From the IMG/VR virus record IMGVR_UViG_2681813269_000007: a stretch of 22,505 nt of DNA, one strand, 5' to 3'. The notes beneath the pieces are model-generated. The model saw nothing but the letters and a program-made list of their open reading frames with translations, was not told the origin of the DNA and searched no databases. Shown here piece after piece: positions 1 to 22,505 of the stretch; position 1 is the stretch's first letter; each line of letters begins with the position of its first letter. A program made the translations under genes and the position numbers. The stretch comes from a virus (Duplodnaviria; Heunggongvirae; Uroviricota; Caudoviricetes).

Positions 1-1
1 T

Positions 2-430
2 TACGGCACTAAATCCACGAATAACACCGGGGCGCATACGCACAGTCTGAGTGGCTCTACGGGGTCTGCCGGTGCTCATACTCATGGTAATGGTATTCGT
101 TGGCCAGGAGGCGGCGGTTCTGCGTTAGCATTTTATGATGGCGGTGGGTTCACTTATGTCAATGATTCACAGTATCAAGTAAGCCCGGGGACTTCTTCCA
201 GTAGATCGTATTATCAACGTATTCAGACACAGTCAGCAGGTGCTCATACCCACTCGCTGTCTGGTACTGCAGCAAGTTCTGGCGCACATGCACATACTGT
301 AGGTATTGGTGCGCATACGCACTCGGTTGCGATTGGCTCACATGGACACACCATCACCGTTAACGCTGCGGGTAACGCGGAAAACACCGTCAAAAACATC
401 GCATTTAACTATATTGTGAGGCTTGCATGA
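2..430 (+). CDS. Side tail fibre protein, C-terminal fragment (5' end lies outside the window)
   Basis: Frame 2 is open from the window edge to TGA at 428-430. Translation carries repeated G-A-H-T-H-S / H-x-H motifs and ends ...[18 protein letters not shown], which I recognise as the C-terminal signature of lambdoid/P2-type side tail fibres. Stop overlaps the next ATG (ATGA). Confidence 0.8.
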
Positions 431-1317
431 TTACGCTCATTCTTTCTGCACCAGTAACAGAAATGGCGGAAGCATTTAAGCGGGTATTTGCAAACGCAGA
501 TAATGTGAATATTGTCGGAAAGCCATTTGAAACAATCAGAGAATTTGACTGCATGGTAAGTGCGGCAAATAGTTTCGGCCTGATGGATGGCGGCGTTGAT
601 GCCGCCATTACCGCATTCTTCGGTACTCAGTTACAGTCCCGCGTTCAGAATCATATTCTTCGTGAATATTTAGGCGAACAGCCTGTAGGTTCTGCATTTG
701 TAATTGAAACGGGGCATAATCATCACCCCTGGCTGGTACATGCGCCAACAATGCGTGTTCCGCTGACAATTGACGGAACAGACGCTGTATATAACGCAAC
801 CTGGGCCGCTCTGCTTGCCATCTTTCAGCACAATAAACACGCAACGACAGACAGGAAAATAAAAACTGTGGTATTCCCTGCAATGGGAGCCGGATGTGGT
901 CAGGTGCCGTTTGAAAGTGTTGCCCGGCAGATGAAGCAGGCATGGGATAACTTTAATAAAAAAACAGAATCAATTAACTGGGAATACGCACAATCCCGCC
1001 AGTCGGCAGTATTTGGCACATATGCATACTGTCCGGGTAATTCTGTTTGCCGTTATGCGGATACTAAATATATTGGATGCGGCGATTATCGGACGTATTG
1101 CTCACGTTCCGGGCAGTTCTGTATTAGCCATGTGCATCAGGCTGATGACGTGCTGACTAATAATCGCTCTCGCCCTGATTCGCATACACACCGGTTTAAT
1201 CCAGAAAATCCCGTAGGCAATCTCACCTCTGGCGCACATAGCCACGGAAGTAGCATCGTTATTGGTGCTCCCACCCATACGCTCAATAAACAATATTCTG
1301 TCTCTGATATTAAGTAG
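427..1317 (+). CDS. Macro-domain (ADP-ribose binding/processing) protein with a Cys-rich, His-x-His tail-fibre-like C-terminal region
   Basis: 296-aa ORF with GAGG 5 nt upstream of the ATG. N-terminal ~180 aa carry macro-domain motifs ([17 protein letters not shown] and [14 protein letters not shown], compare YmdB NAANPSLMGGGGVDGAI and VAFPAISTGVYGYP). C-terminal ~100 aa have SHVH, SHTHRF and GAHSHGS motifs like the upstream tail fibre. Confidence 0.6.
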
Positions 1318-1319
1318 AG

Positions 1320-1901
1320 GTGAACATGGATTTTAGAATGACTGAACAACCACGGACCATAAAAATTTATAATCTGCTGGCCGGAACTAATGAATTTATT
1401 GGTGAAGGTGACGCATATATTCCGCCTCATACAGGCCTGCCAGCAAACAGTACCGATATTGCACCGCCAGATATTCCGGCTGGCTTCGTGGCTGTTTTCA
1501 ACAGTGATGAGGCATCGTGGCATCTCGTTGAAGACCATCGGGGAAAAACCGTCTATGACGTGGCTTCCGGCGACGCGTTATTTATTTCTGAACTTGGCCC
1601 ATTACCGGAAAATGTCACCTGGTTATCCCCGGAAGGGGAGTTTCAGAAGTGGAACGGCACAGCCTGGGTGAAGGATACGGAAGCAGAAAAACTGTTCCGG
1701 ATCCGGGAGGCGGAAGAAACAAAAAACAACCTGATGCAGGTAGCCAGTGAGCATATTGCGCCGCTTCAGGATGCTGCAGATCTGGAAATTGCAACGGAGG
1801 AAGAAAACTCGTTGCTGGAAGCCTGGAAGAAGTATCGGGTGTTGCTGAACCGTGTTGATACATCACTATCTCCAGATATCGAGTGGCCAAGTCAACCATA
1901 A
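1320..1901 (+). CDS. tfa: Tail fibre assembly protein (Tfa family)
   Basis: 193-aa ORF with AGAGGTGA RBS. C-terminus ...[22 protein letters not shown] is the conserved Tfa / P2 gpG-type signature. Sits directly downstream of the tail fibre region. Confidence 0.85.
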
Positions 1902-1906
1902 ATCAA

Positions 1907-1929
1907 TATCCCCTGCAATGCAGGGGATA
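1907..1929. terminator. Hairpin between convergent tfa and sopB (candidate bidirectional terminator)
   Basis: ATCCCCTG-caatg-CAGGGGAT, an 8-bp perfect stem, lies between the tfa stop (1901) and the sopB stop (1934). The flanking U-tract is weak. Confidence 0.45.
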
Positions 1930-1933
1930 GTTC

Positions 1934-2899
1934 TTAATTATCAGTAGATTGTTCCTCTAGTAACAACTCAATTCTGCTTAGTATTTCTTTAGATATTTTG
2001 CGGCTATCAATTTTTATAGTTACAAAATTACCTTTATATCTAGCCGTGATCCCTTCCCCATATTTTTTCTCGTCTTTTGTTTTTTCCTCGTCGCCAACCA
2101 GAACAGAGTCAGATAATATTTGTATAATCCGTGAAGCTTCTAAATCCTCGCCGTTTTTTTTAATTGCCAGAAGATGATGAGCAGCATTGCTCATGGCAGC
2201 CATGTTTTTTTTGTAAACCTTAAACAAAGAATCTCCAGCACGAGCTGACAGTTCTCCTGGATGATTGAAGATAGCTAATATATCTTTTGGTAGACCAGCT
2301 GTATTAATACAGCGAGTGATAATATTTCTATCTATATTTTCAGCCTCGGCTAATGCTTTAACGTTACCATCAAAGTCATTTAGCTTGCGTAAGTATCTCT
2401 TTCCTCTTTCGTATGCACTAATAGGCCTATAATCGTTACCAATTTGGGATAACCAATGCATCTGTTCATCGTCGAGATCACCAATTAAGACGCGATAGTC
2501 ACATCCTGTTAATATCGCTGCTTTTCTTCTACGTGAGCCGTCAGCGACTTCAACGATTCCAGATACTTTTCTGGCGAAAGCTGGATTTTGTTGTCCAGAC
2601 GTTAGAAAAGATGGGATTAAATCGGCTAGAGAGGATTCATTTAATAAATCTTGATCGCGTTCATTACCTAGCCATACCATTGTTGCCATTTCAACTTTAT
2701 CTGCGGGAATTGTCTCTAACTTAAAGTTAACATTACGTCCGCATACTGGCAAAGTTATGCTGTTACCGGTTAATGAACTCAGTTGACGTTTTAAATCACC
2801 AACCATAGGTGATACGGGCTGATGTTCAGGGGCATGATGATTATTACTCATAATGCGATTAATATCTGGAGCATTTTTTAGAAGAGAGCGCTGTTTCAT
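1934..2899 (-). CDS. sopB: Partition protein SopB (ParB family, centromere-binding)
   Basis: 321-aa ORF colinear with F-plasmid SopB as I recall it (ITLPVCGR, WxGNERDQ, DLIPSF, PAFxRxVSG, IADGSRRRKAA, DYRVLxGxLDDEQM, GNDYRPxSAYERG, CINTAxLPK, HPGELSAR). Start overlaps the sopA stop. Confidence 0.9.
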   Translation of the reverse strand: MKQRSLLKNAPDINRIMSNNHHAPEHQPVSPMVGDLKRQLSSLTGNSITLPVCGRNVNFKLETIPADKVEMATMVWLGNERDQDLLNESSLADLIPSFLTSGQQNPAFARKVSGIVEVADGSRRRKAAILTGCDYRVLIGDLDDEQMHWLSQIGNDYRPISAYERGKRYLRKLNDFDGNVKALAEAENIDRNIITRCINTAGLPKDILAIFNHPGELSARAGDSLFKVYKKNMAAMSNAAHHLLAIKKNGEDLEASRIIQILSDSVLVGDEEKTKDEKKYGEGITARYKGNFVTIKIDSRKISKEILSRIELLLEEQSTDN

Positions 2900-4065
2900 T
2901 ATTCGTTCTCCCAGCGAGGTTTTATTAGATCATCAAAAATTTCTCGGCAAACAGGGTCCCATATAGAAACAGCATTTCTCCATGCATTCAATGTTGAACG
3001 TTGGTTTGCTGCTTGTTCAAATACTGTTCTCATTTTTATCTGGCCTTTACCTACTTCATCGGTAACGCGTACAACCTGACGTAATACCATTGATCCCCAT
3101 GTATTTCTTATTTGTTCTTCCATCCATCGTGATTGATTCCCTGTAGTGAGACTATATTTAGTCAGAAGTAAGCGAACGGTTGGCTCAAATCCACCTAGGT
3201 CAACGCTTTCCAATAGATCGAGAAGCATTGTGAAAAACTGTAGAACAGAAGCGTAATCAAATAATTCTGCAGGTGTAGCAACAACAATAACGTCAGCGGC
3301 ACAAACAACGTTAATGGTTCCTGTACCGAGGTTCGGAGCACTATCTATAACGATAACATCGTAGTTATCCCAAACTGATTCAATAGCTGCGCGCAGCATA
3401 AGGTGTGGAGGATGAGGCAATTTACCCTGAGCATGATATTGCATGAGATCTGTTTCTATACGATGTAAAGCTAGGCAGCTAGGGATAATGTCTAGCCCAG
3501 GCCAACATGTTGGCTTTATAGCATATTCAGCGTTATCGCGTTCTCCTAAGTAAAATGGCAGTAAAGTATCCTCGGCATGGATATGTAAATCAGGAACATA
3601 ACCGTGATACATAGAGGCCGTGCCTTGAGGATCGTTACCTTCAACCAAAAGAACACGATGACCTTGTAATGCTAACCATTGAGCTTGATGTACCGCAGAC
3701 GATGTTTTATAAACGCCGCCTTTGTGTGACATAACGGCAAGCGCAACAGGGTTTTTATCTTGTGGTCGTTGGTTTGGGTTGCCAAAAACTGCTCGCATAC
3801 TGTTGATTTGATCTATGGTATAACCAGCACGACGTTCAATTCTTCCTCTCATTTCAAAGTCAGGTGCAGGTAAACGCCCGCTCTTCTCAGCATCTCTAAT
3901 TGCTTGAGGAGTTACACCAATTAAATCTGCTACTTCAGTTATACCCCATCGGCGGGTGATACGCCGAGCTTCAGGACTATCATCACCGAATTGAGCGATA
4001 GCAATTGCTTTGGTCATTTCTTGACCTCTCGTAACACAATCTTGCAATAACTTTTTCAAAGACAT
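2899..4065 (-). CDS. sopA: Partition ATPase SopA (ParA family, type Ia with N-terminal HTH extension)
   Basis: 388-aa ORF with GGAGATGA RBS. Deviant Walker A KGGVYKTS, a long N-terminal extension, and the same length as F SopA. Transcribed divergently from telN. Confidence 0.9.
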   Translation of the reverse strand: MSLKKLLQDCVTRGQEMTKAIAIAQFGDDSPEARRITRRWGITEVADLIGVTPQAIRDAEKSGRLPAPDFEMRGRIERRAGYTIDQINSMRAVFGNPNQRPQDKNPVALAVMSHKGGVYKTSSAVHQAQWLALQGHRVLLVEGNDPQGTASMYHGYVPDLHIHAEDTLLPFYLGERDNAEYAIKPTCWPGLDIIPSCLALHRIETDLMQYHAQGKLPHPPHLMLRAAIESVWDNYDVIVIDSAPNLGTGTINVVCAADVIVVATPAELFDYASVLQFFTMLLDLLESVDLGGFEPTVRLLLTKYSLTTGNQSRWMEEQIRNTWGSMVLRQVVRVTDEVGKGQIKMRTVFEQAANQRSTLNAWRNAVSIWDPVCREIFDDLIKPRWENE

Positions 4066-4086
4066 ACTGTCATCTCCAGCTTGTAA

Positions 4087-4164
4087 CTTTGCTTAATAAT
4101 TAAATCTTTGCTTATTTCTAGCAAATTTGCATAAAAAAGGCAAAGCAAAACGAAAAACGCAAAG
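4087..4164. promoter_or_regulatory. sopAB promoter/operator region with clustered CTTTGC / GCAAAG hexamers
   Basis: At least six CTTTGC or GCAAAG copies (4087, 4106, 4121-4130, 4140, 4159) lie just upstream of the sopA start. CTTTGC repeats are the SopA autoregulatory sites in the F sop promoter. Confidence 0.45.
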
Positions 4165-4352
4165 GCGAATATTTGAGCTAAATCATCTTTTTTTCCCCTC
4201 CCGAAATGCATAAAACGAACAACAATATAATCATAACTAATTGATATTTATGACCTTTCTTAAGAAAGGAAATCATATAAAACTAGAGAAACATGATAAG
4301 AATCATCAATGAGATACGTTTTCTCTATTAGTTCTCCCAACCTTACCAACAT

Positions 4353-4500
4353 AAGAACACAAATAAAGAACATAAAAAACAAGTAATAACACAAACACAA
4401 TAAAGAACATAAATAAAGAATTAAAACAAATATTAAATAAAACAGTACGCAAACTGAGAACATTACATCAAATGAAAACACTAATCAAGAACATAACGAA
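4353..4500. repeat. AT-rich array of AAGAACA(T/C)AA direct repeats next to telO
   Basis: AAGAACA occurs at 4353, 4366, 4403, 4487 and as GAGAACA at 4456. The 13-mer ATAAAGAACATAA is exact at 4363-4375 and 4400-4412. All copies are on the sopA side of the palindrome. Confidence 0.5.
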
Positions 4501-4542
4501 ACATAATCACCCATTATACGCGCGTATAATGGGGAATTATGT
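4501..4542. other. telRL / telO telomere-resolution site (protelomerase target palindrome)
   Basis: ACATAATCACCCATTATACGCGCGTATAATGGGGAATTATGT has dyad symmetry centred between 4521 and 4522. The central 24 bp (4510-4533) are a perfect palindrome containing TACGCGCGTA; two mismatched pairs separate it from 7-bp matched outer arms. It lies between sopA and telN, as in N15. Confidence 0.85.
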
Positions 4543-4712
4543 GCTGATTTTCAGAACAAAGTCAAGGAACAAATTTTAACGTTCCGACATTGTGTTTTTA
4601 TTTATTATCTGTTATTGCGTTCTGTTAGTTTGTGCCTAAGTTAACGCGTTATTAGTTATCTTATTCTCAAATTGTGTTACGATAATCCGAGCGGATAATC
4701 AGGAGAGGAAAG

Positions 4713-6626
4713 ATGAGCAAAGTAAAAATCGGTGAATTAATAAACTCACTTGTTAGCGATGTTGAGTCAATAGATAACTCTGACCGTCCTCAAGGGGAGA
4801 AAACAAAAAAAATAAAGGCTGTTGCATTAAAATTTAAAAATGCATTATTTAATGACAAGCGAAAGTTTAGGGGGAAAGGATTAGAAAAAAGAATTACAGC
4901 CAACACATTCAATGCCTATATGAGCAGGGCCAGAAAACGGTTTGATGATAAACTTCATCATAGCTTTGAAAAAAATATACATCGCCTATCTGAAAAGTAT
5001 CCTTTATATAATGAGGAGCTATTGTCATGGCTTTCTCTACCTGCTGCCGATATTCGCCAGAGAATGTCAGCTTTACAGGCAAAATTAAAATTAATTCTCC
5101 CTCTATCAGAAGATTTATCTAATATCAGAATTGGCGATAACAAAAGTCATAATAAGTTATTGAAATTATCAAATAAATATAAAGAGTGGCAATTCGCCAT
5201 TTCTGATTTAACTAGCGATAACTGGAAAGATAAGCGCGATTATTTATATAAATTACTACAGCAAGGATCTGCCTTACTTGAGGAGTTGAATCAGCTAAAA
5301 GTTAACCATGAGATTCTCTATCATCTTCAACTAAGCCCTGCCGAACGTGCATCTATCCAGCAACGATGGGCGGACGTTCTGCACAATAAGAAACGTAACG
5401 TGGTGGTCATTGATTACCCTAAATATATGCAAGCTATTTACGATATTATAAATAGCCCTGCTACATTAAATAATCTAAACACTCGTTCAGGTATGGCTCC
5501 TTTGGCATTTGCACTTGCTGCATTGTCAGGAAGACGAATGATTGAGATTATGTATCAAGGTACATTTACTGTTTCTGGTAAGTATACCGTTGATTTTTTA
5601 GGCCAAGCTAAAAAAAGAACTTCTGATGATATAACCAGAAAAATATATACATTATGCGAAGCAAAAACATTTGTTTATTTAATAAATGTACTTCGCTCAT
5701 GCCCAGCAGCATCTGATTTTGATGATGTCGTTAAAGGTTATGGAGATAACGATACACGCTCTGAAAACGGACGTATTAATGCCATATTAGCAAAGGCTTT
5801 TAACCCGTGGGTTAAATCATTTTTCAAAGATGACCGCCGTGTTTATAAAGATAGTCGTGCTATTTATGCCCGTATTGCGTATGAAATGTTTTTCCGCGTA
5901 GATCCTCGTTGGAAAAACGTAGATGAAGATGTTTTCTTTATGGAAATTTTAGGCCATGACGATGAAAACACTCAATTACACTATAAGCAATTCAAGCTGG
6001 CCAACTTCTCAAAGACATGGAGGCCAAATACTGGAAACGAAAATACCAGGCTGGAAGCATTGCAGCAGCTTGATGACGAAATGCCTGGATTCGCCAGAGG
6101 AGATGCCGGGGTTCGTCTGCATAACACAGTTAAGCAGCTGGTAGAGCAGGACCCCTCTATAAAAATCACGAACAGCACTCTAAGAGCGTTCAAATTTAGC
6201 CCAACAATGATTAGTCGATACCTGGAATTTGCTGCTGATGCTCTGGGGCAATTTGTTGGCGAAAACGGACAATGGCAACTGAAAATAGATACTCCAGAAA
6301 TCGTTATGCCTGACGAAGAAGAACTGGAAGCAATACCTGAACTGGCGGATGAATTATCAGAGGATGACGATCTGGATGACGACGAAATTGAGATAGAGGA
6401 AGAGGAAGAGGAAGAGGAAGAGGAAGAGGAAGAGAGCGTAGAAGAACAGCAACCGCCTGCACCTTCTTCGCCTGTATCTAAGCCGGTATTTAAGCCGGTG
6501 AGAAATATTGGTGATGGCTCATACGTTGTTGAGTTTCATTATAATGGCCAGAATTATGCGTGGTCCGGCAGTGCAAACAGCCCCATGTCAGCAATGCAGT
6601 TAGCATGGCTGACATATTTCGGTTAA
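4713..6626 (+). CDS. telN: Protelomerase TelN (telomere resolvase, tyrosine-recombinase-like)
   Basis: 637-aa ORF with AGGAGAGG RBS. The N-terminus MSKVKIGELIN... and overall colinearity match N15 TelN (about 630 aa) as I recall it. An acidic C-terminal tract precedes the conserved tail. Confidence 0.92.
   Translation: MSKVKIGELINSLVSDVESIDNSDRPQGEKTKKIKAVALKFKNALFNDKRKFRGKGLEKRITANTFNAYMSRARKRFDDKLHHSFEKNIHRLSEKYPLYNEELLSWLSLPAADIRQRMSALQAKLKLILPLSEDLSNIRIGDNKSHNKLLKLSNKYKEWQFAISDLTSDNWKDKRDYLYKLLQQGSALLEELNQLKVNHEILYHLQLSPAERASIQQRWADVLHNKKRNVVVIDYPKYMQAIYDIINSPATLNNLNTRSGMAPLAFALAALSGRRMIEIMYQGTFTVSGKYTVDFLGQAKKRTSDDITRKIYTLCEAKTFVYLINVLRSCPAASDFDDVVKGYGDNDTRSENGRINAILAKAFNPWVKSFFKDDRRVYKDSRAIYARIAYEMFFRVDPRWKNVDEDVFFMEILGHDDENTQLHYKQFKLANFSKTWRPNTGNENTRLEALQQLDDEMPGFARGDAGVRLHNTVKQLVEQDPSIKITNSTLRAFKFSPTMISRYLEFAADALGQFVGENGQWQLKIDTPEIVMPDEEELEAIPELADELSEDDDLDDDEIEIEEEEEEEEEEEEESVEEQQPPAPSSPVSKPVFKPVRNIGDGSYVVEFHYNGQNYAWSGSANSPMSAMQLAWLTYFG
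6396..6431 (+). repeat. Perfect (GAGGAA)x6 in-frame hexanucleotide tandem repeat inside telN
   Basis: Six exact tandem GAGGAA units encode the poly-Glu run in the TelN C-terminal acidic linker. Confidence 0.9.
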
Positions 6627-10166: not shown

Positions 10167-13100
10167 TTACCCATAGAAAGCGCCCTGCTCTTCGTAGCTG
10201 CATGGGCTATTCCCGGTAATGTATTCACGTAACCGCCGCAGTTCATTGCTGGATAAGTGATCCATGAACTCTGTGAGGTACAGAGATGCAAACGTCATAG
10301 CTATGCTGGCTGATGACCATGATGACATAGTGGCCAGCTCCTCACCGGAAAGCGCACTCATCGCCCAGGACTCAGGTACAACCACTGGCAACACAGCCAA
10401 AGCCTCAGAAATTACTGAATGAGGGGCGTTTTGAACCTGCTCGTTTGTGGATCGCGTTTTATCATCCATATATATATTGAGATCCAAATCGCGATCCATT
10501 TCGATGGCGGTCTTCTCGGCTTTACGCGTTTTCAGGGTTAGGCCATCTTTCTGACGCTGAGCAAGAATATCCAGCATAAATGCCGCTGATTCAGGCTCAA
10601 CAAAACGCAAGGTTGGACGCTTATCGCCGTCTCTGCCGCGACGTTTACCTGTTTTAAGGCCAAGAGAGTCGCAAATGTTTTTAAACAACGCTTCCGGCAC
10701 TTTAGGCTTCCCTTTTGGCGTCATAAAACCACCAATGTGCAGAACGTTATTCAACAGGTCACGGCGTTCGGCTGTCATGAGGTTATCTCGAGCAAATTTG
10801 AGACGCTCCTGAGTCGCCTCGCCGGTCATAGTCTCAGGGTTGATACCGCAGTCGATAAAGTACTGCCGGAGAGTTGCTGATTTAAGCGCATAGAAACCGC
10901 GCGCCCCGACTTCAACAGTAGGAGTAGCTTTTACCTTGTGATCGATTATTCCAGGGAATTTAGTTTTAAAGACATCATCAGCCTGCTCGCGAGTCATCGC
11001 GGTCACTACAAAATATTGCCACTGTCCCGCCTGACGGTATGCGTAGGTAAAATTGATGGCTGCTTCTTCCCGGTCGTAACGACGAGCTGTTACCTCATCT
11101 AAAAGCATTGTTTCATAGCGGCGAACTTTGTCTCGAGCACCATCGAAATAGAATTTCAGCGTGCCTTCTTCAACCGGTAGTTTCAGTTCGTTTTCAATAT
11201 CCCAGCGGACAAGTTTTGCCTGTTCTTCAAGCGTCAGCGCGCGTTTTTTTAGCAGTTCTTCACGCTCTGATTCTTGTGGAGTTTCTGTATTGAGATGCAG
11301 ATCCAGTGTCTGTTCCCACACAATATCCCGCGCTTCTTTACGCAGCTCTTTACCGATATCATTCGCAGCATAATCGGTGGCCAGCGGCGATACCTTATAA
11401 CCGTCGCTGTGCATGATGCAGATCATGTTGCTGGCGTAGTCGTTACGCGCAGTCGCTTCAATAGCGGCTGCTTTAATTTTCATCCTGGTAAAGTCGGTAT
11501 TGGCCACCCCCATTGATATACGGTCGCCATCGAAAACGACATCCGTCAGTTCACCGTTCATACCTGCGGTAGCAAGCAATGCCTGGGCGAATGCTCGTTC
11601 TATTTTTTGCGGGTCAGTTTCACGTTTTGCACGAGCTTTATCAAAGCCGATAATAAATTCTTTTGCTGTACGGTCGCGGCGTAGCATTTGCACTGCGTCG
11701 CTGGGTACAACTTCACCACAGAACATGCCGAAATGACGGTCAAAATGTTTTTGCTCAATCGACACGCCGGATGAAATAGACGGGCTATAAATCAGGCCGT
11801 CGTATTTTTTGACCATCTTTTTCGGTTGATTGGTAAATGCTTCAACTTCTGGCTCTGGTTTGTTTTTCTGGTTTACACACAGAAATTTCTTACCAGGAAA
11901 ATGCATTCTCAGGGTGGCTGTCACATCTTCTGCAAAGGTGGAGCTGTCGGTGGCCAACATGATTTTTTCGCCATCCGATACAGCTTTCACCACCTCGGTC
12001 ATGATGCGATCTTTTTCTGTATAAAAAACCCGGATTGGCTCACCTGTTTCGCGGTTGCGAACATCAACAGGTAATTCAATTACGTGGATCTGCAGCCATG
12101 CCGGTAAACCTAGTTCTTCACGGCGTTTCATAGCCAGTTCAGCCAGGTCAACCAGCAGATCGTTCGCATCAGCATCCACCATGATTGGGTGTTGTTCCGT
12201 TCTGGCCAGCGCGTCAATTAGCGTATTGAATACAGCCACCGGGTTTTCCATAGCCCGACCGGAAAGAACGGCACGTAGCCCTTGTGTGGCCTCGTCAAAG
12301 CCAAAATAGTCGTGCTGGCGCATCAACGGTTGCCAGCAGTTTTTAACAATCGAGTTTATGCAGATGGTCAGTTTACTGGCGTATGGAGCCATTTCCTGAT
12401 AGCCAGGGTCCTGATAGTGCAGGATATCGGCTTTTACACCTTTTCCTTCTGTCATCATTTCCCACAGGCCACCAATAAGGGAGACACGGTGAGCAACAGA
12501 GATACCACGTTCTGAGCTATGCATTAATGGTCGTAACAATCCTGTAGATTTGCCGGAACCCATACCAGCACGGACGATGACTATCCCTTGTAGTGATTGC
12601 ACGTACTTCAGGACATCATCGGTCATTACCGAAGTTTCAAAACGCTTATAGGTGATATGTTGAGGGCGTTTATTGGGATCAGTTATGCGTTCGCTGAAAG
12701 AGCGCGGAGCCTGGGCAATACGGCACTTTTTATTCAGGCGACGGGCAATGTGGTCTTTTACCGTAGCGCGATAGATATTTTCCAGTCCCATTTCACGCAG
12801 AACGATGCAGAACATGTTAAATAAATCTGACGGACTGTTAGGAACCGGACAGGTTAGCATGCCTATATCCACCGCTCTCAGCAGCTCTTTGGCAAAAGTA
12901 CGACGGTTATCCCGCTTAATTGTCTTCAGGCGGTTGAGCGTCAGAGATAGCAAATCAGTACCGGTTTTCAGGCGGTTTGCTGTTGTAAATAGTTGACGTG
13001 CGGTTTCACGAAGTCCACGTAGTTTGTGCAGGTCGTTGAAGTCACTGCACTCCATTTGCGGATCGTCTTCAAAAGTTGGATAGACGCAGCGGACATCGTT

Positions 13101-14162
13101 GAATTTCGATAAGATTTCATAGCCAGTCCGCAGGCCGGTATTCCCTTTTCCTTCTGTGGCAGATTTCCGGTCATTATCCAGTGCGCAGGTGATTTTTGCC
13201 GCCGGGTACATGTTTACCAGTTGTTCCACAACATGAACCATGTTGTTAGCGGATACAGCGACAACCACAGCGTCAAAGCGTTTATATTTTTTCGTGGCAA
13301 GCCAGATGGATGCACCAGTAGCAAAACCTTCTGTAACAGCGATGTTTTGCGCCCCTTTCAGCTCACCGATAACAAAGCAGGCACCGACGAAATCGCCGCT
13401 GGTTACTGCGCTGGTCTGGTATTTCCCACCTTGTTTGTCGATTCGCTGCCAACCCACAATACGACCATCGTAACGACCGTCCAGGTGAGCCAGAGGGATA
13501 GCCATATATGTGGTTGGCCCCCGGCTCCATTTCGCACTGTCGTGACTGGTCACGCGACGCACATCACATGAACTAAAAACGTCACGAATACCTTTTTTAA
13601 TCGCATATGGCCATGAGCCGTCTTCAGCCGGAGCATGTTCCCACGCGCTGTGGAATGCCAGCCATCCCAGCAAACGTTCATGGTCCATTTGGTTGTTTTT
13701 CAGGTCATTAATTCGTTTTTGTTCTTCACGGCGACGACGTGCTTCGGCCTGACGTTCTATTCTTTCCCGTTCTTCTTCCGGTTGTGCGACCACGGTCGCA
13801 TTATTCCGTTGTTGCTCACGGCGATATTCAGAAAACAGGAAGGAGAAACCGCTCCATGAGCCAGCATCGCTGCCTTTATGGACGAAGTTAATGAACGGGT
13901 AATCAATCCCTTTGCTGTGTTCCAGCCGGGAGTAAATTTCTACGCGTCCTTTCAGGCTCTTTTCGAGAGCTTCTGGAGATGTTTTATTGTATGAAGAGTA
14001 ACGCTCAACTCCCCCGCGAGGGTTGAGTTGGATGTTGTCGGAACAGGCAGGCCAGTTGATACCAGCCATCTGTGCCAGCTCGGTTAGTTCATCCCGTGCT
14101 GCTTCAATTAGCGAGAACGGATCGCTGCCAAAGCGATCCGCATAGAAATCGTTTAATGTCAT
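10167..14162 (-). CDS. repA: Replication protein RepA (multidomain primase-helicase)
   Basis: 1331-aa ORF, close to the roughly 1324 aa I recall for N15 RepA. Walker A GMGSGKST in the central helicase region. Same orientation and position relative to cB as in N15. Confidence 0.92.
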   Translation of the reverse strand: MTLNDFYADRFGSDPFSLIEAARDELTELAQMAGINWPACSDNIQLNPRGGVERYSSYNKTSPEALEKSLKGRVEIYSRLEHSKGIDYPFINFVHKGSDAGSWSGFSFLFSEYRREQQRNNATVVAQPEEERERIERQAEARRRREEQKRINDLKNNQMDHERLLGWLAFHSAWEHAPAEDGSWPYAIKKGIRDVFSSCDVRRVTSHDSAKWSRGPTTYMAIPLAHLDGRYDGRIVGWQRIDKQGGKYQTSAVTSGDFVGACFVIGELKGAQNIAVTEGFATGASIWLATKKYKRFDAVVVAVSANNMVHVVEQLVNMYPAAKITCALDNDRKSATEGKGNTGLRTGYEILSKFNDVRCVYPTFEDDPQMECSDFNDLHKLRGLRETARQLFTTANRLKTGTDLLSLTLNRLKTIKRDNRRTFAKELLRAVDIGMLTCPVPNSPSDLFNMFCIVLREMGLENIYRATVKDHIARRLNKKCRIAQAPRSFSERITDPNKRPQHITYKRFETSVMTDDVLKYVQSLQGIVIVRAGMGSGKSTGLLRPLMHSSERGISVAHRVSLIGGLWEMMTEGKGVKADILHYQDPGYQEMAPYASKLTICINSIVKNCWQPLMRQHDYFGFDEATQGLRAVLSGRAMENPVAVFNTLIDALARTEQHPIMVDADANDLLVDLAELAMKRREELGLPAWLQIHVIELPVDVRNRETGEPIRVFYTEKDRIMTEVVKAVSDGEKIMLATDSSTFAEDVTATLRMHFPGKKFLCVNQKNKPEPEVEAFTNQPKKMVKKYDGLIYSPSISSGVSIEQKHFDRHFGMFCGEVVPSDAVQMLRRDRTAKEFIIGFDKARAKRETDPQKIERAFAQALLATAGMNGELTDVVFDGDRISMGVANTDFTRMKIKAAAIEATARNDYASNMICIMHSDGYKVSPLATDYAANDIGKELRKEARDIVWEQTLDLHLNTETPQESEREELLKKRALTLEEQAKLVRWDIENELKLPVEEGTLKFYFDGARDKVRRYETMLLDEVTARRYDREEAAINFTYAYRQAGQWQYFVVTAMTREQADDVFKTKFPGIIDHKVKATPTVEVGARGFYALKSATLRQYFIDCGINPETMTGEATQERLKFARDNLMTAERRDLLNNVLHIGGFMTPKGKPKVPEALFKNICDSLGLKTGKRRGRDGDKRPTLRFVEPESAAFMLDILAQRQKDGLTLKTRKAEKTAIEMDRDLDLNIYMDDKTRSTNEQVQNAPHSVISEALAVLPVVVPESWAMSALSGEELATMSSWSSASIAMTFASLYLTEFMDHLSSNELRRLREYITGNSPCSYEEQGAFYG
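13783..13802. other. sopC-like centromere palindrome, copy 1 (inside repA coding sequence)
   Basis: TGTGCGACC-AC-GGTCGCATT. Positions 13785-13800 (TGCGACC-AC-GGTCGCA) are a perfect 7+2+7 inverted repeat with the same GACC-AC-GGTC core as the F sopC SopB-binding site. Confidence 0.6.
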
Positions 14163-14407: not shown

Positions 14408-15004
14408 TCATCTACCCTCAACCATGAATGATTTGATCGTTCCGACTATTTGGTGAACAAATTCAAGATCGCTTTTCCTGAAGATGGCTCGTTGTGAGTT
14501 TGTTCCATCCAGATAGTAATTTTCATCATCAAAACGGGCCAGGCGCTGGATAGTGATATTTCCTGCAGTATCACGAACCAGAACATCCTCGCCGGGGACC
14601 AGTTCCAGCGCAGAATCGACCAGGAGAAAATCGCCTGGCTGATAGTTTCCCTGCGTAAGATTGCTGATAGTTAACGCATACACAGTATTGCGCTGGCTGA
14701 TGAATGGCAGGAATCGCTCAGTATTTGGAACCTGTCCCGGCTTCCATTCTTCATCAGGCCCACTTTCAGTTGTGCCAATAATAGGAATGCGATCAGGGTC
14801 ATATTCTGTCCCATATAGCACCCAATGCACTGGCTTGCGTAAGCACTTAGCCAGGGCAATACCTATCTCCAGTGACGGCATTACGTCGCCACGTTCTAAG
14901 TTTTGGACGCCTGCTATAGAGATATCGACAGCCTCAGCAACTTCTCGCAACGTCAGCTTCATCTCTAAACGGCGTGCTTTCAGTCGTTCGCCTCGTGTTT
15001 TCAT
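14408..15004 (-). CDS. cB: Prophage repressor CB (CI-like, N-terminal HTH, C-terminal S24-like domain)
   Basis: 198-aa ORF with an XRE-type HTH (LTLREVAEAVDISIAGVQNLERG) and a LexA/CI-like C-terminal fold (GDFLLVD ... ITIQRL). Divergent from cro across an operator region. Confidence 0.85.
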   Translation of the reverse strand: MKTRGERLKARRLEMKLTLREVAEAVDISIAGVQNLERGDVMPSLEIGIALAKCLRKPVHWVLYGTEYDPDRIPIIGTTESGPDEEWKPGQVPNTERFLPFISQRNTVYALTISNLTQGNYQPGDFLLVDSALELVPGEDVLVRDTAGNITIQRLARFDDENYYLDGTNSQRAIFRKSDLEFVHQIVGTIKSFMVEGR

Positions 15005-15026: not shown

Positions 15027-15068
15027 TTATAGCTGGCTATAAAATTTATTTATTATAGCTGGCTTTAA
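15027..15068. promoter_or_regulatory. Paired operators in the cB-cro intergenic region
   Basis: TTATAGC-TG-GCTATAA (15027-15042) and TTATAGC-TG-GCTTTAA (15053-15068) are 26 bp centre to centre, followed by TATAAT at 15084-15089. Confidence 0.6.
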
Positions 15069-15095
15069 TTGTTATTTATTGTTTATAATAACAAC

Positions 15096-15317
15096 ATGAA
15101 ACCAGAAGAACTTATTCGCCACTTTGGCAGTGTTGAAAAAGCAGCGGCAGGGGTAGGTGTAACACCCGGAGCTGTTTACCAATGGTTAACCGCTGGAGAG
15201 ATTCCTTCATTGCGGCAAAGCGATATTGAAGTTCGTACTGCTTACAAGCTGAAGAGTGACTTTACAACTCGGCGGGTAAAGCAGTCGATTAAGGAGAGTC
15301 GTAAGCGTGGAGCTTGA
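15096..15317 (+). CDS. cro: Cro-like repressor
   Basis: 73 aa from ATG 15096 (MKPEELIRHFGSVEKAAAGVGVTPGAVYQWL..., an HTH). The ORF track extends to a TTG at 15069 that lies inside the operator, so the shorter start is preferred. Confidence 0.7.
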   Translation: MKPEELIRHFGSVEKAAAGVGVTPGAVYQWLTAGEIPSLRQSDIEVRTAYKLKSDFTTRRVKQSIKESRKRGA

Positions 15318-16017
15318 GTATATACGCAGCTGCGTCTCTACGGCATTGGCTGATGTTCATTATCGCCAGCGTGGCATTCTGGAGGTCCAGCTTGAGCAGA
15401 TGCGTCTCGGTAGATCAGGACGGTTTAACAATAAACCAGTCCGGTCAATCAGTGTGGGGGATGATAACTCATACGAAGTGTCCGTTCCCGCTGAGCCGGT
15501 TAGATTCCACCAAGGGAAAACATTTAAACAATCATCAATATTGCTCACTGATATTGATTTTCAGAGCGCCAGCTGGCGCAGGGCTATTGGTCAGTTGAAT
15601 AACGAGGAATCAGCCTGGCTTTATTATTGCTACGGATGCAAGCCTGACTACAACAATGATGTGATTGTTTGTCAGTGGTTATGGCTTGATTTTCTGGTTG
15701 CTCATTCTGGGGGCGGCTTTAAAAAAATGAAGGCCTCCACGAAAAAAGCCATGCGGAAATTGATTTATTACGCGGCACAGCAGGTTAAATCAGAACTTAC
15801 GTGTGCTGAGGCAGTTGATGAGAGAGAACAGGACAGGCATCTGAGTTTTCTACTGAATATATCTATTGATAGCTGGAGACAAGATTATAAAGAACGCTGG
15901 CTTTTAATTAAGTCGCGATGTCTGAGCTTAAATCGAACCGCATTATTAAATGCGGCGGAGAAGCGCAGTGAAATCATCAAACGCCATCGGGCAGGAAGTG
16001 CCATTCTGCCTTTGTAA
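15307..16017 (+). CDS. Hypothetical protein in the position of a Q-like late antiterminator
   Basis: 236-aa ORF with GTG start and AAGGAG RBS, overlapping the cro 3' end. Function inferred from gene order only. Confidence 0.35.
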   Translation: MELEYIRSCVSTALADVHYRQRGILEVQLEQMRLGRSGRFNNKPVRSISVGDDNSYEVSVPAEPVRFHQGKTFKQSSILLTDIDFQSASWRRAIGQLNNEESAWLYYCYGCKPDYNNDVIVCQWLWLDFLVAHSGGGFKKMKASTKKAMRKLIYYAAQQVKSELTCAEAVDEREQDRHLSFLLNISIDSWRQDYKERWLLIKSRCLSLNRTALLNAAEKRSEIIKRHRAGSAILPL

Positions 16018-16022
16018 ACAAG

Positions 16023-16270
16023 TTATGTTCAGGAAACCGTCGAAGCCAGAATTAAGGTATTCGGGGGTAAGAAATGAATATGTTATCTGGTGTCCAACTT
16101 GTGGTTACAGGACACGACCAGATAGTAATAAGCAGTCTGTAATTGCCGATTGGTATTTATCAAATCAGCCAGGTAATAAGCATATAGAAAATCTTTGGAT
16201 TAAGCGTTACTTGGAAATCAGCGAGGGTGCGACCACGGTCGCACAAGAAAATGAAAATAACGCCATTTAA
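16023..16270 (+). CDS. Small zinc-ribbon protein (possible Lar-type restriction-alleviation protein)
   Basis: 82 aa from ATG 16023 with a CPTCG motif in YVIWCPTCGYRTRPD. No clear RBS; the start is uncertain and the ORF track offers an alternative at 15950. Confidence 0.35.
16227..16244. other. sopC-like centromere palindrome, copy 2
   Basis: GTGCGACC-AC-GGTCGCAC, a perfect 8+2+8 inverted repeat at the junction of two small ORFs. Confidence 0.6.
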
Positions 16271-17786: not shown

Positions 17787-18457
17787 AATTTTCTAAATTT
17801 TCTGAGTTGGTGAATCGTATTTTGTTGAATCGTATTTTGTCCAACAACCACAGGCATCGTCGCGATATGGATGTAACAATCGTTGTTCATTCGCCTGGCA
17901 GCATTGGTTCAACACCTTCAGTTGAGGTTCAGTCAATTCACGCTGGTTTTGATTGGGATTCCGGGAAAGTGCTTATTTTCCCAGCACAGCCACTGACCAC
18001 GCTAACACCAGAACAGATTACTGATATTACTGATAGTGTGCGCAAAGGTCAGTCTTGGCACGCATATCAGGAATATAAAAAGCATAAAGAGCAGTTGGAA
18101 AAATTGTCGATTGAGTTGGAATCAGCCAAAAATCATATAGCAGAACTGGAAGCCAAACCTGTAAGCCAAACTTACAAGTTAACTTTTGAGCAATGGCTGG
18201 AACAGCAGCATGACAAAATTGATGTTGATTGTGGATGTGTAAGTACAGAAATGCTTATGCACTGGATAAGGGTCGCGTATGAGGCTGGCAACTCTCCGGT
18301 AACTCCGGATGGTCATATTCAGTTTTCTGTTTCACTTCCTGCAGCATGTGGTGGAGATAAATATTTTATTGATGGTGTATTTCAACCTTTGAGATATGAG
18401 CGTGACTGTGAAAAAGCGGTTGTGGCCGCTGGCGGTGTAGTTAATTGGGTTAAGTAA
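17783..18457 (+). CDS. Hypothetical protein
   Basis: 224-aa ORF, ATG overlapping the upstream stop, with a GGTGA RBS. No recognisable motif. Confidence 0.6.
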   Translation: MKFSKFSELVNRILLNRILSNNHRHRRDMDVTIVVHSPGSIGSTPSVEVQSIHAGFDWDSGKVLIFPAQPLTTLTPEQITDITDSVRKGQSWHAYQEYKKHKEQLEKLSIELESAKNHIAELEAKPVSQTYKLTFEQWLEQQHDKIDVDCGCVSTEMLMHWIRVAYEAGNSPVTPDGHIQFSVSLPAACGGDKYFIDGVFQPLRYERDCEKAVVAAGGVVNWVK

Positions 18458-20527: not shown

Positions 20528-20530
20528 AAG

Positions 20531-20552
20531 CTGTGCGACCACGGTCGCACAG
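20531..20552. other. sopC-like centromere palindrome, copy 3 (longest perfect copy)
   Basis: CTGTGCGACC-AC-GGTCGCACAG, a perfect 10+2+10 inverted repeat starting 4 nt after the stop of the preceding gene. Confidence 0.65.
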
Positions 20553-20635
20553 CACAAAAACGAAAAAGCTTGGCAAAATGACGGTTTTTAGTTATTGTTT
20601 TGTTAAGTTGGGTTTTTTGTACCCAACAGCCAACA

Positions 20636-20659
20636 AGCCGCCTTTATGGCGGTTTTTTT
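20636..20659 (+). terminator. Intrinsic terminator downstream of the small-gene block
   Basis: GCCGCC-tttat-GGCGG followed by T7. Confidence 0.5.
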
Positions 20660-20794
20660 GTGCCTGAAAAGTGGGCGCAGGACAAGTTGCAGCTTGTCCT
20701 GCGGTCAACCCATGCCAGAGCTATAGGCTGAACCTAAAGCCCACCCGCGATGCGCATCGCCGGGTTAGCTTACCCAGGCAAAAAAATAATAGCT

Positions 20795-21871
20795 ATGTTC
20801 AAAACCACTAATATTCATGGCGCACAACTCGTTTGCGCAGATTCTCTGCAATTTATCAAAACCATCCCTGATAACTCGGTCAATTTGATTGCAACAGACC
20901 CACCATACTTCGGCGTAAAGGCTAACGCATGGGATAACCAGTGGGATAGCGATGCTGACTTTTTGGGGTGGATTGACGAATTTTTGGCAGAATTTTGGCG
21001 GATATTGGCCCCTAATGGCAGCCTGTATATGTTTACCGGCTCTCGCCTTGCGTCAAAAATTGAATTATTAACTCGCGACCGTTTCAATGTTCTGAACCAT
21101 ATCATTTGGGCTAAACCCAGTGGTATGTGGCGCGGTTGTCATAAAGAAAGTTTAAGGGCTTATTTTCCTGCTACTGAAAGAATATTATTTGCAGAGCATT
21201 ACGGCGCGTCAGGTTATGCTAAAGGTCAGTCAGGTTATGCTTCAAAATGTGCAGATTTAAGAAAAAATATTTTTTCTCCACTAATTGATGCTTTTTCGCT
21301 GGCTCGCCGTCAGTTAGATATATCAGCCGCAGACATTAATTCAGCGACAGGAAAGCAGATGTGTTCACACTGGTTTTCTTATTCGCAGTGGCGGCTTCCA
21401 TCATTAATTGATTTTAATAAACTATGCGAATTATTTCGCAGGAAGGCAGATTCACTCGGTGTCCCGTGTCCATATCCTTTTAATGTTGATTATTCAGAAC
21501 ATGAAAAGCGTTATAGCGATCTGAAATTGCATTATGAGGAAGTAAAGAAGCAGTATGATGATTTGAAGGCTCAGTATGAAAATTTACGCCGTCCATTTCA
21601 TGTTACTGCTGATGTACCTTATACCGATGTATGGGAGTTTCCTCCTGTGCAATATTATCCTGGCAAGCACCCATGTGAAAAACCTGCAGCGATGATGGAA
21701 CATATTATAAAGAGTAGTTCACGCCCCGGAGATATCGTTGCCGATTTCTTTATGGGATCAGGCTCAACTATTAAAGCTGCGCTGAAGTTAGGACGTCAGG
21801 CAATAGGTATTGAGATTGAGGGCGAACGTTATCTTCAGACAGTTGATGAAGTGAAAAAGTTATTTGAGTAA
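20795..21871 (+). CDS. DNA methyltransferase (amino-MTase, DPPY motif before FxGxG motif)
   Basis: ORF open from 20750; ATG 20795 is preferred because the 20750 ATG sits inside a palindrome. IATDPPY near the N-terminus and FFMGSGST near the C-terminus. No adjacent endonuclease is visible. Confidence 0.8.
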   Translation: MFKTTNIHGAQLVCADSLQFIKTIPDNSVNLIATDPPYFGVKANAWDNQWDSDADFLGWIDEFLAEFWRILAPNGSLYMFTGSRLASKIELLTRDRFNVLNHIIWAKPSGMWRGCHKESLRAYFPATERILFAEHYGASGYAKGQSGYASKCADLRKNIFSPLIDAFSLARRQLDISAADINSATGKQMCSHWFSYSQWRLPSLIDFNKLCELFRRKADSLGVPCPYPFNVDYSEHEKRYSDLKLHYEEVKKQYDDLKAQYENLRRPFHVTADVPYTDVWEFPPVQYYPGKHPCEKPAAMMEHIIKSSSRPGDIVADFFMGSGSTIKAALKLGRQAIGIEIEGERYLQTVDEVKKLFE

Positions 21872-22239: not shown

Positions 22240-22505
22240 TGCAGTCATCATTACGCAAAGCTGTCACAGCTGCTATTGGTGGCGGGGCTATTGCCATAGC
22301 GTCTATGCTCATCACTGGCCCAAGTGGTAACGATGGTCTGGAAGGTGTCAGTTACATACCATACAAAGATATTGTTGGCGTATGGACTGTATGTTACGGA
22401 CACACTGGAAAAGACATCATGCTAGGTAAAACGTATACCGAAGCAGAATGCAAAGCTCTCCTGAATAAAGACCTTGCCACTGTCGCCAGACAAATTAACC
22501 CGTAC
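22236..22505 (+). CDS. SAR endolysin (T4-lysozyme fold), N-terminal fragment (3' end outside the window)
   Basis: N-terminal signal-anchor-release segment ([20 protein letters not shown]) followed by the catalytic region [19 protein letters not shown] with E, D (+9) and T (+6) spacing. Open to the window end. Confidence 0.85.

Follow-up and report, generated by a model that had tools for sequence, protein, structure and literature searches.

What function is served by three copies of one palindrome that lie kilobases apart in a phage genome, and which protein acts on them, is the question raised by this locus. The DNA analyzed here, hereafter the window, is the whole stretch of 22,505 nucleotides from record IMGVR_UViG_2681813269_000007, and a preliminary description of it had proposed that the palindromes are sopC-like sites forming a scattered centromere. 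Based on its ORFs and Pfam domains, the window belongs to an N15-like linear phage-plasmid of E. coli with sopA, sopB, telN, repA, cB, Q and a late promoter, and it keeps the gene order of N15 (sopB, sopA, telN, repA, cB-type repressor, Q, methylase). The closest records are Escherichia phage PhiR46_1 (96.8%) and YDC107_1; many plasmids of E. coli, Shigella and E. fergusonii are 95-98% identical to the window, no record covering more than 90% of it. At the DNA level, N15 is about 76% identical to the window over repA to Q and only about 70-77% overall. The features relevant to the palindromes are:

1934-2899, minus strand: sopB, 321 aa, encoding a ParB-family centromere-binding protein (Pfam SoPB_HTH, E = 7e-25), the putative binder of the three sites.
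2899-4065, minus strand: sopA, 388 aa, encoding a ParA-type partition ATPase (Pfam AAA_31 and CbiA) with 93% identity to N15 SopA.
4713-6626: the protelomerase gene (telN).
10167-14162, minus strand: repA, 1331 aa, a primase/helicase-type replication gene that hosts site 1.
13785-13800: site 1 (TGCGACC-AC-GGTCGCA), orthologue of N15 IR1, inside repA at codons 122-126 and 363 bp into the gene.
14408-15004, minus strand: the cB-type repressor gene.
15307-16017, plus strand: the Q antiterminator gene (Pfam Phage_antiter_Q, E = 2e-83), upstream neighbour of site 2.
15950-16270, plus strand: a small ORF, 106 aa in its longest form, that carries a CxxC motif and weakly resembles Lar (Pfam Lar_restr_allev, E = 3.5e-4, under the gathering score).
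16227-16244: site 2 (GTGCGACC-AC-GGTCGCAC), orthologue of N15 IR2, 210 bp 3' of the Q stop codon and within the 3' end of the small Lar-like ORF.
20530-20553: site 3 (GCTGTGCGACC-AC-GGTCGCACAGC), orthologue of N15 IR3, intergenic, starting 3 bp past the stop of the gp51 homologue.
20570-20598, plus strand: the late promoter orthologue (TTGGCA, 17 bp, TATTGT), directly downstream of site 3, located by a scan and by alignment with the annotated N15 and phiKO2 late promoters.
20635-20655, plus strand: an intrinsic terminator downstream of the late promoter, found by a scan, conserved in N15 and phiKO2 (where it is annotated as a terminator) and presumed to be the target of Q antitermination.
20750-21871: a DNA methylase gene; the window also has a holin.

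The sequence TGCGACC-AC-GGTCGCA occurs in three exact copies in the window (at 13785-13800, 16227-16244 and 20530-20553), all of which share the exact 14-mer core GCGACCACGGTCGC (13786-13799, 16229-16242 and 20535-20548) and have perfect arms about a 2-bp AC centre. The copies are single, separated by 2443 and 4306 bp, and spread over about 7 kb of the replication/early region. The proposed family of three palindromes with a conserved GACC-AC-GGTC centre was thus recovered, with some correction of its boundaries: the 8-bp arms and the span 16227-16244 given for site 2 were exact and the 7-bp arms of site 1 were confirmed, but the span 13783-13802 given for site 1 includes two unpaired bases on each side, and site 3 has 11-bp arms at 20530-20553 rather than 10-bp arms at 20531-20552. 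Given 22.5 kb, both strands and the base composition, chance would produce 5.7e-5 exact copies; when up to three mismatches were allowed, six matches were seen (each site on both strands), compared with a mean of 1.0 in dinucleotide shuffles, and none of 100 shuffles reached six. A chance origin of the palindromes was ruled out on these grounds. Searches with both patterns, N15-type and F-type, turned up no extra degenerate copies in the window when as many as three mismatches were allowed. A match with two substitutions at 796 was discounted as non-palindromic.

The likeness to the F plasmid that had been pointed out is close. The SopB-binding unit of F sopC, TGGGACCACGGTCCCA, has the same GACC-AC-GGTC centre and the same 7+2+7 geometry, works with homologous SopA and SopB proteins, and differs from the window sites only at position 3 and its mirror. 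This F-type 16-bp site is not present in the window, where its best matches are the three N15-type sites with two mismatches each, at those same two positions. In F, sopC consists of 12 tandem 43-bp repeats next to sopB, each with one 16-bp site, whereas the sites described here are single, kilobases apart, and have C instead of G at position 3. As had been noted earlier, no tandem array follows sopB: Tandem Repeats Finder was blank across 1-4352, so that the window has no F-like sopC as an alternative centromere, and the region past the sopB stop codon encodes tail-fibre genes.

The arrangement of the sites is that of N15. The pattern GCGACCNNGGTCGC has four copies in the N15 genome: one within repA (33481), one between Q and gene 41 (35932), one 23 bp ahead of the -35 of the annotated late promoter (41126) and one after gene 58 (45563). 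These copies are the published centromere sites IR1-IR4, whose sequences and flanks are printed as oligonucleotides (PMC7205306, Table 4); the precedent of dispersed N15 sites, which the preliminary description had invoked, is therefore documented. The window sites occupy the first three of the four positions, with alignable flanks. The flanks of site 1 (cttcttccggttgt and attattccgttg) match those of IR1, which lies at the same repA codons; site 2 can be aligned with IR2; and site 3 aligns with IR3, along with the late promoter and its terminator, the 14-mer core of site 3 ending 21 bp before the late promoter -35. The window core is identical to the published IR1 and IR4, and only the centre differs from IR2 and IR3.

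Both elements have the core GCGACC-NN-GGTCGC at the same three locations (repA codons, after Q, before the late promoter), SopA and SopB as partners, and no array by sopB. The differences concern the centres (AC, TC, AT and AC in N15, AC in all three window sites), the arms of site 1 (7 bp here, 6 bp in the N15 RefSeq record) and of site 3 (11 bp here, 9 bp in N15), and the number of sites, which is four in N15 and five in complete genomes of the window's E. coli clade. With regard to IR1, the N15 RefSeq record (33479-33496) reads ...ctgaGCGACC..., with 6-bp arms, and the IR1 oligonucleotide in PMC7205306 reads CTGTGCGACC, with 8-bp arms; MStein-2023a has the same version of IR1 as the N15 RefSeq record.

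In the RefSeq record of phiKO2 (NC_005857), 18-bp features labelled 'putative plasmid partitioning sites' occupy all four of the N15 positions, and the orthologue of site 3 is annotated there as a partition site adjoining a 'putative late promoter'. The 18-mer GTGCGACC-NN-GGTCGCAC is identical, and located at the same four genomic positions, in phiKO2 and the N15-like phages of Klebsiella and Enterobacter, which differ from the window's element in host genus; Enterobacter phage MStein-2023a and Klebsiella phage 48ST307 are among the carriers of the sites. We know of no experimental test of the annotated phiKO2-type sites.

Closer to the window, complete genomes of its own clade (PhiR46_1, p23GD35035_P4, pPEC1013-3 and YDC107_1) carry five sites spanning about 10 kb: the three described here and two more, about 3.0 and 3.3 kb to the right of site 3. 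This extra pair lies after the lysis and DUF4406 genes, with its members 220 bp apart (17795-17808 and 18015-18028 in clade record L002, 15740 and 15960 in L006, 42652 and 42872 in L007). Projected onto the window, sites 4 and 5 would fall at about 23.6 and 23.8 kb, past its end at 22505, so that the window probably shows three of five sites. The three copies counted originally are all there, but they are probably not the full set of the element. In YDC107_1 (CP025712.1) the telN-repA arm is present twice, in inverted orientation and with the second copy frameshifted, which looks like a product of assembly, with read-through of a hairpin telomere, and not like biology. Several plasmid records, 61-81 kb long (e.g., NZ_CP014491.1), have four matching places and may share this problem.

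A dispersed arrangement is likewise found in PY54, a telomere phage of Yersinia, which has a site at the same repA codons and another in a Lar-like ORF after Q. The PY54 sites differ in being of the F type (GGGACC..GGTCCC) and in their number, about 11, and the recognition helix of its SpyB protein starts with SRK, as in F. F-type sites or near-sites of PY54 were located at 509, 6567, 22252, 26514, 30985, 31241, 34395, 39871, 40977, 41122 and 44410, that is, over the whole genome including the virion-gene arm. In the N15-type phages examined, unlike PY54, all sites are on the repA-to-lysis side.

The SopB protein of the window is 73% identical to N15 SopB and is without about 20 C-terminal residues of the latter. 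Its best solved relative is F SopB (3mky), with a weak match to the Spo0J structure 6sdk. The GSRRRK ParB box, the helix-turn-helix with its recognition helix, and the SAR motif are conserved, including the Arg that corresponds to R219 of F SopB, a residue essential for sopC binding. The recognition helix starts with DRN in the SopB proteins of the window, N15 and phiKO2, which go with GCGACC sites, and with SRK in F SopB and PY54 SpyB, which go with GGGACC sites; the type of site thus co-varies with the SopB recognition helix. F SopB fails with N15 sites and N15 SopB accepts both types (PMC7205306). Binding by F SopB depends critically on site positions 2, 4, 5, 6 and 7 and least on positions 1 and 3, and it requires a purine-pyrimidine centre (PMC3177203). 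The window sites keep all five critical positions and have a purine-pyrimidine centre (AC).

The centre is more variable among relatives, where it is AC, GT, GC or AT, always purine-pyrimidine, and it sometimes differs between near-identical genomes. At site 2 it is AC in the window (16229), GT in PhiR46_1 and pPEC1013-3, and GC (on the window strand) in p23GD35035_P4 and 48ST307 (L002 10376, L006 23276); since site 2 lies within an ORF, these centre flips change Thr to Val or Ala. N15 IR2, with its TC centre, is an exception to the purine-pyrimidine rule. A further comparison can be made with chromosomal parS (ParB/Spo0J, 16-bp repeats around the origin), which resembles the window in having several single palindromes over the replicon and a ParB binder with a GxxRRxxA-type box (GSRRRK here). 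The chromosomal sites differ in their unrelated sequence (TGTTNCACGTGAAACA type), and the system described here is instead a type Ia plasmid system, in which SopA has an N-terminal DNA-binding extension.

Two of the three sites lie within ORFs, which allows the constraint on the DNA to be separated from that on the protein. Site 1 is in frame in repA, whose counterparts in relatives are annotated as 'plasmid replication protein, CyRepA1 family'; on the minus strand it reads GCG ACC GTG GTC GCA (ATVVA; Ala-Thr-Val-Val-Ala, residues 122-126), and its codons are all four-fold degenerate. When the repA genes of the window, N15, phiKO2 and 48ST307 (70-86% pairwise identity) were aligned by codon, 79 of 437 comparable four-fold sites were invariant (18%), while all four four-fold-degenerate third positions of the 14-mer core were invariant in the four genomes (P about 0.18^4, or about 0.001). 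Invariance of the synonymous positions of the core against this 18% background argues for selection on the site at the DNA level. At the same repA codons PY54 has GGG ACC ACG GTC CCA, an F-type site, with the residues changed to Gly-Thr-Thr-Val-Pro.

Site 2 occupies the last codons (GCG ACC ACG GTC GCA, ATTVA) of the small ORF at 15950-16270, which overlaps the end of Q and ends ...EGATTVAQENENNAI. Conservation of this ORF with a three-base period across N15, phiKO2, 48ST307 and MStein-2023a suggests that it is coding. Neither the N15 RefSeq record nor the PGAP annotation of relatives includes it; at this place PY54 has a 'Lar-like' ORF44, which has a site in its 3' end as well. Centromere sites can therefore sit inside essential coding sequence, where they constrain the choice of codons and, in PY54, even the amino acids.

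We then asked how specific the motif is to this group of elements. A scan of IMG/VR for GTGCGACCNNGGTCGCAC returned at least 120 stretches, with 157 sites among the matches listed; among these, 155 of the 157 sites have N15-like 400-bp flanks (with the motif masked), and 155 of 157 have a purine-pyrimidine centre. In 596 Gb of representative bacterial and archaeal genomes, the fully specified 18-mer was found in 37 stretches, with 38 matches compared with about 17 expected under uniform composition. Of these stretches, 32 are singletons in unrelated, mostly high-GC genomes, at about chance level, and the other five are N15-like DNA, the only multi-copy contig being a 46-kb one of Pseudocitrobacter with three copies. 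Outside N15-like elements the motif is therefore found at about chance frequency and was never clustered (in the 596 Gb and among the IMG/VR matches listed), so that the comparison with unrelated genomes, suggested at the outset as a way to refute the proposal, comes out in favour of the centromere reading. A 52-kb contig labelled Limoniibacter endophyticus (NZ_BMZO01000013.1) contains N15-like DNA, of which 5.9 of 8 kb can be aligned (GC 0.52); this is a surprising organism label for an enterobacterial-type phage-plasmid, and the contig may be contamination.

For N15, the function has been established by experiment. N15 SopB uses IR1-IR4 as centromere sites, and it forms foci on an IR array (PMC7205306). 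When sopAB is expressed from the chromosome, plasmids with N15 IR1 within repA (pJAZZ-type vectors) are stably inherited, with <0.1% loss per generation (PMC2847241). The stabilization assay that had been suggested, a single site with sopAB in trans, has on this account already been done for N15 IR1 (PMC2847241), and since one N15 repA site suffices for sopAB-dependent stability, centromere activity is demonstrated for the orthologue of site 1. A cognate N15-type sopAB operon is present on the same replicon as the window sites, and by orthology with N15 these sites would be expected to bind SopB and to act in partition of the window's own element. Taking into account the orthology, the phiKO2 annotation, the selection at the DNA level, the co-variation with SopB and the N15-like specificity of the motif, the original reading as a scattered N15-type centromere stands: the three palindromes are very probably SopB-binding centromere (parS-type) sites, orthologues of N15 IR1, IR2 and IR3, with a probability that we put at roughly 0.93.

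On the model of N15 and F, a dimer of the element's own SopB would recognize each 16-18 bp site through its helix-turn-helix. More SopB would then load and spread around each site to form partition complexes, and these would stimulate the SopA ATPase, which would place copies of the low-copy linear prophage on either side of the division plane. By analogy with N15, site 2 (by Q) and site 3 (by the late promoter) probably also help late transcription in lytic growth. Late transcription of N15 is reportedly stimulated through IR2 and IR3, mutation of IR2 or IR3 is said to delay lysis, and full activity of the late promoter reportedly needs IR3, together with Q, IR2 and SopAB. The conserved placement of sites 2 and 3 fits this reported second role of N15 Sop in late gene expression, and Ravin, Rech and Lane (2008) state in their title that the N15 Sop system 'facilitates late gene expression'. 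Site 3 may have an added structural or transcriptional role, given its unusually long arms (11 bp) and the four T's on its minus-strand side.

These same observations can be turned into an alternative, namely that the palindromes are mainly transcription-control elements and that partition is secondary, with SopB either bound at them or spreading from them to silence early genes (repA, post-Q), an effect that the preliminary description had raised as a further possibility, or bridging Q and the late promoter. Such a role would suit the positions of the sites, 21 bp upstream of the late promoter -35 (site 3), 210 bp after Q (site 2) and 363 bp into repA (site 1), and the conservation of this placement in N15, phiKO2 and the E. 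coli relatives. However, the effect in N15 is reportedly a stimulation of late expression and not a silencing of early genes. Silencing by F SopB is generally seen only on SopB overproduction. The published title quoted above is in line with transcription control and SopB silencing has been used as an assay on an N15 4xIR array (PMC7205306), but the sufficiency of one N15 site in repA for sopAB-dependent stable inheritance (PMC2847241) speaks for partition itself. We therefore regard transcription control as an improbable main role, and any regulation by the sites most likely comes on top of partition and does not replace it.

It is hardly credible that the palindromes are intrinsic terminators, or other RNA or DNA hairpins that share a sequence. 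In favour of this are the perfect, G+C-rich inverted repeats, the TTTT that follows site 3 on the minus strand, and the N15 record, which marks the fourth copy as a 'putative rho-independent transcription terminator' (45560-45584); yet the scan that called the real late-operon terminators called none of the three palindromes, sites 1 and 2 are inside coding sequence and without a T-run on either strand, and no minus-strand gene ends at site 3. Moreover, terminators would not need an identical 14-16 bp in each copy, conserved across genera and co-varying with the type of ParB. The terminator reading was rejected because the scan called 0 of 3 sites and two of them are within ORFs. Binding by another phage protein instead of SopB (RepA at the origin, the CB repressor, the protelomerase, or methylase/restriction functions) could be considered because site 1 is inside repA, within which N15 replication initiates (PMC2847241), and because the window has other palindromes of comparable size at which proteins bind, namely the telRL core (4514) and operator-like repeats (15027). 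These palindromes, however, are unrelated in sequence to the three sites, whose sole departure from the proven SopB site of F sopC is at the position that matters least to F SopB, and which have the same purine-pyrimidine centre. Given in addition that N15 SopB foci are specific to these IR sequences (PMC7205306) and that the type of site switches together with the type of ParB in PY54, a binder other than SopB seems extremely unlikely.

With the centromere reading preferred, the feature is an already well-described N15-type dispersed centromere in an unannotated relative. For N15, the dispersed-centromere design, its dependence on SopB and its link to late transcription were established between 1999 and 2008. 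Three minor points may be new: that the E. coli clade has a set of five sites, that the sites constrain codons in repA and in the Lar-like ORF, and that DRN or SRK co-varies with position 3. The sites are unmarked in the public entries for PhiR46_1 and the PGAP-annotated plasmids of this family, and recent telomere-phage papers (PMC10612081 and PMC12042878) make no mention of centromere sites. The three sites can be annotated with confidence as partition sites in the phage-plasmid family of E. coli, Shigella and Klebsiella.

A broader interpretation, which we offer tentatively and consider possible but doubtful, is that these elements hold a natural specificity code. In such a code, C at site position 3 (window, N15 and phiKO2) would go with D-R-N at the start of the SopB recognition helix, and G (F and PY54) with S-R-K, the two residues that flank the invariant Arg changing together with the base and forcing changes in RepA at the embedded site (ATVVA or GTTVP). 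The same interpretation would extend to the E. coli clade, whose set would have grown from four sites to five with those near Q and the late promoter retained; a conserved loop bridged by SopB, coupling partition proteins to late transcription, would be in keeping with this. If a swap of the two residues alone re-targets SopB, orthogonal ParB/parS pairs could be obtained by design.

Our analysis also identified other repeats in the window. The protelomerase target telRL is intact between sopA and telN (4490-4550, with the core TTATACGCGCGTATAA at 4514-4529) and aligns with the annotated telRL of N15 and phiKO2; the window is therefore in phage/circular map order and not in linear-plasmid order. 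Between the sopA start and telRL there is an A-rich block of degenerate tandem repeats (4353-4488) with periods of 13, 18 and 37 and a consensus such as AAGAACACAAATA, which may correspond to a sop promoter/operator or to TelN-accessory repeats. At 15027-15080, between the cB repressor gene and cro, a 26-bp unit with the palindrome TTATAGCTGGCTATAA is repeated about twice and looks like the CB operator region of N15. Finally, the 3' part of the protelomerase gene contains a perfect hexamer repeat (AGAGGA x 6.7) at 6395-6434.
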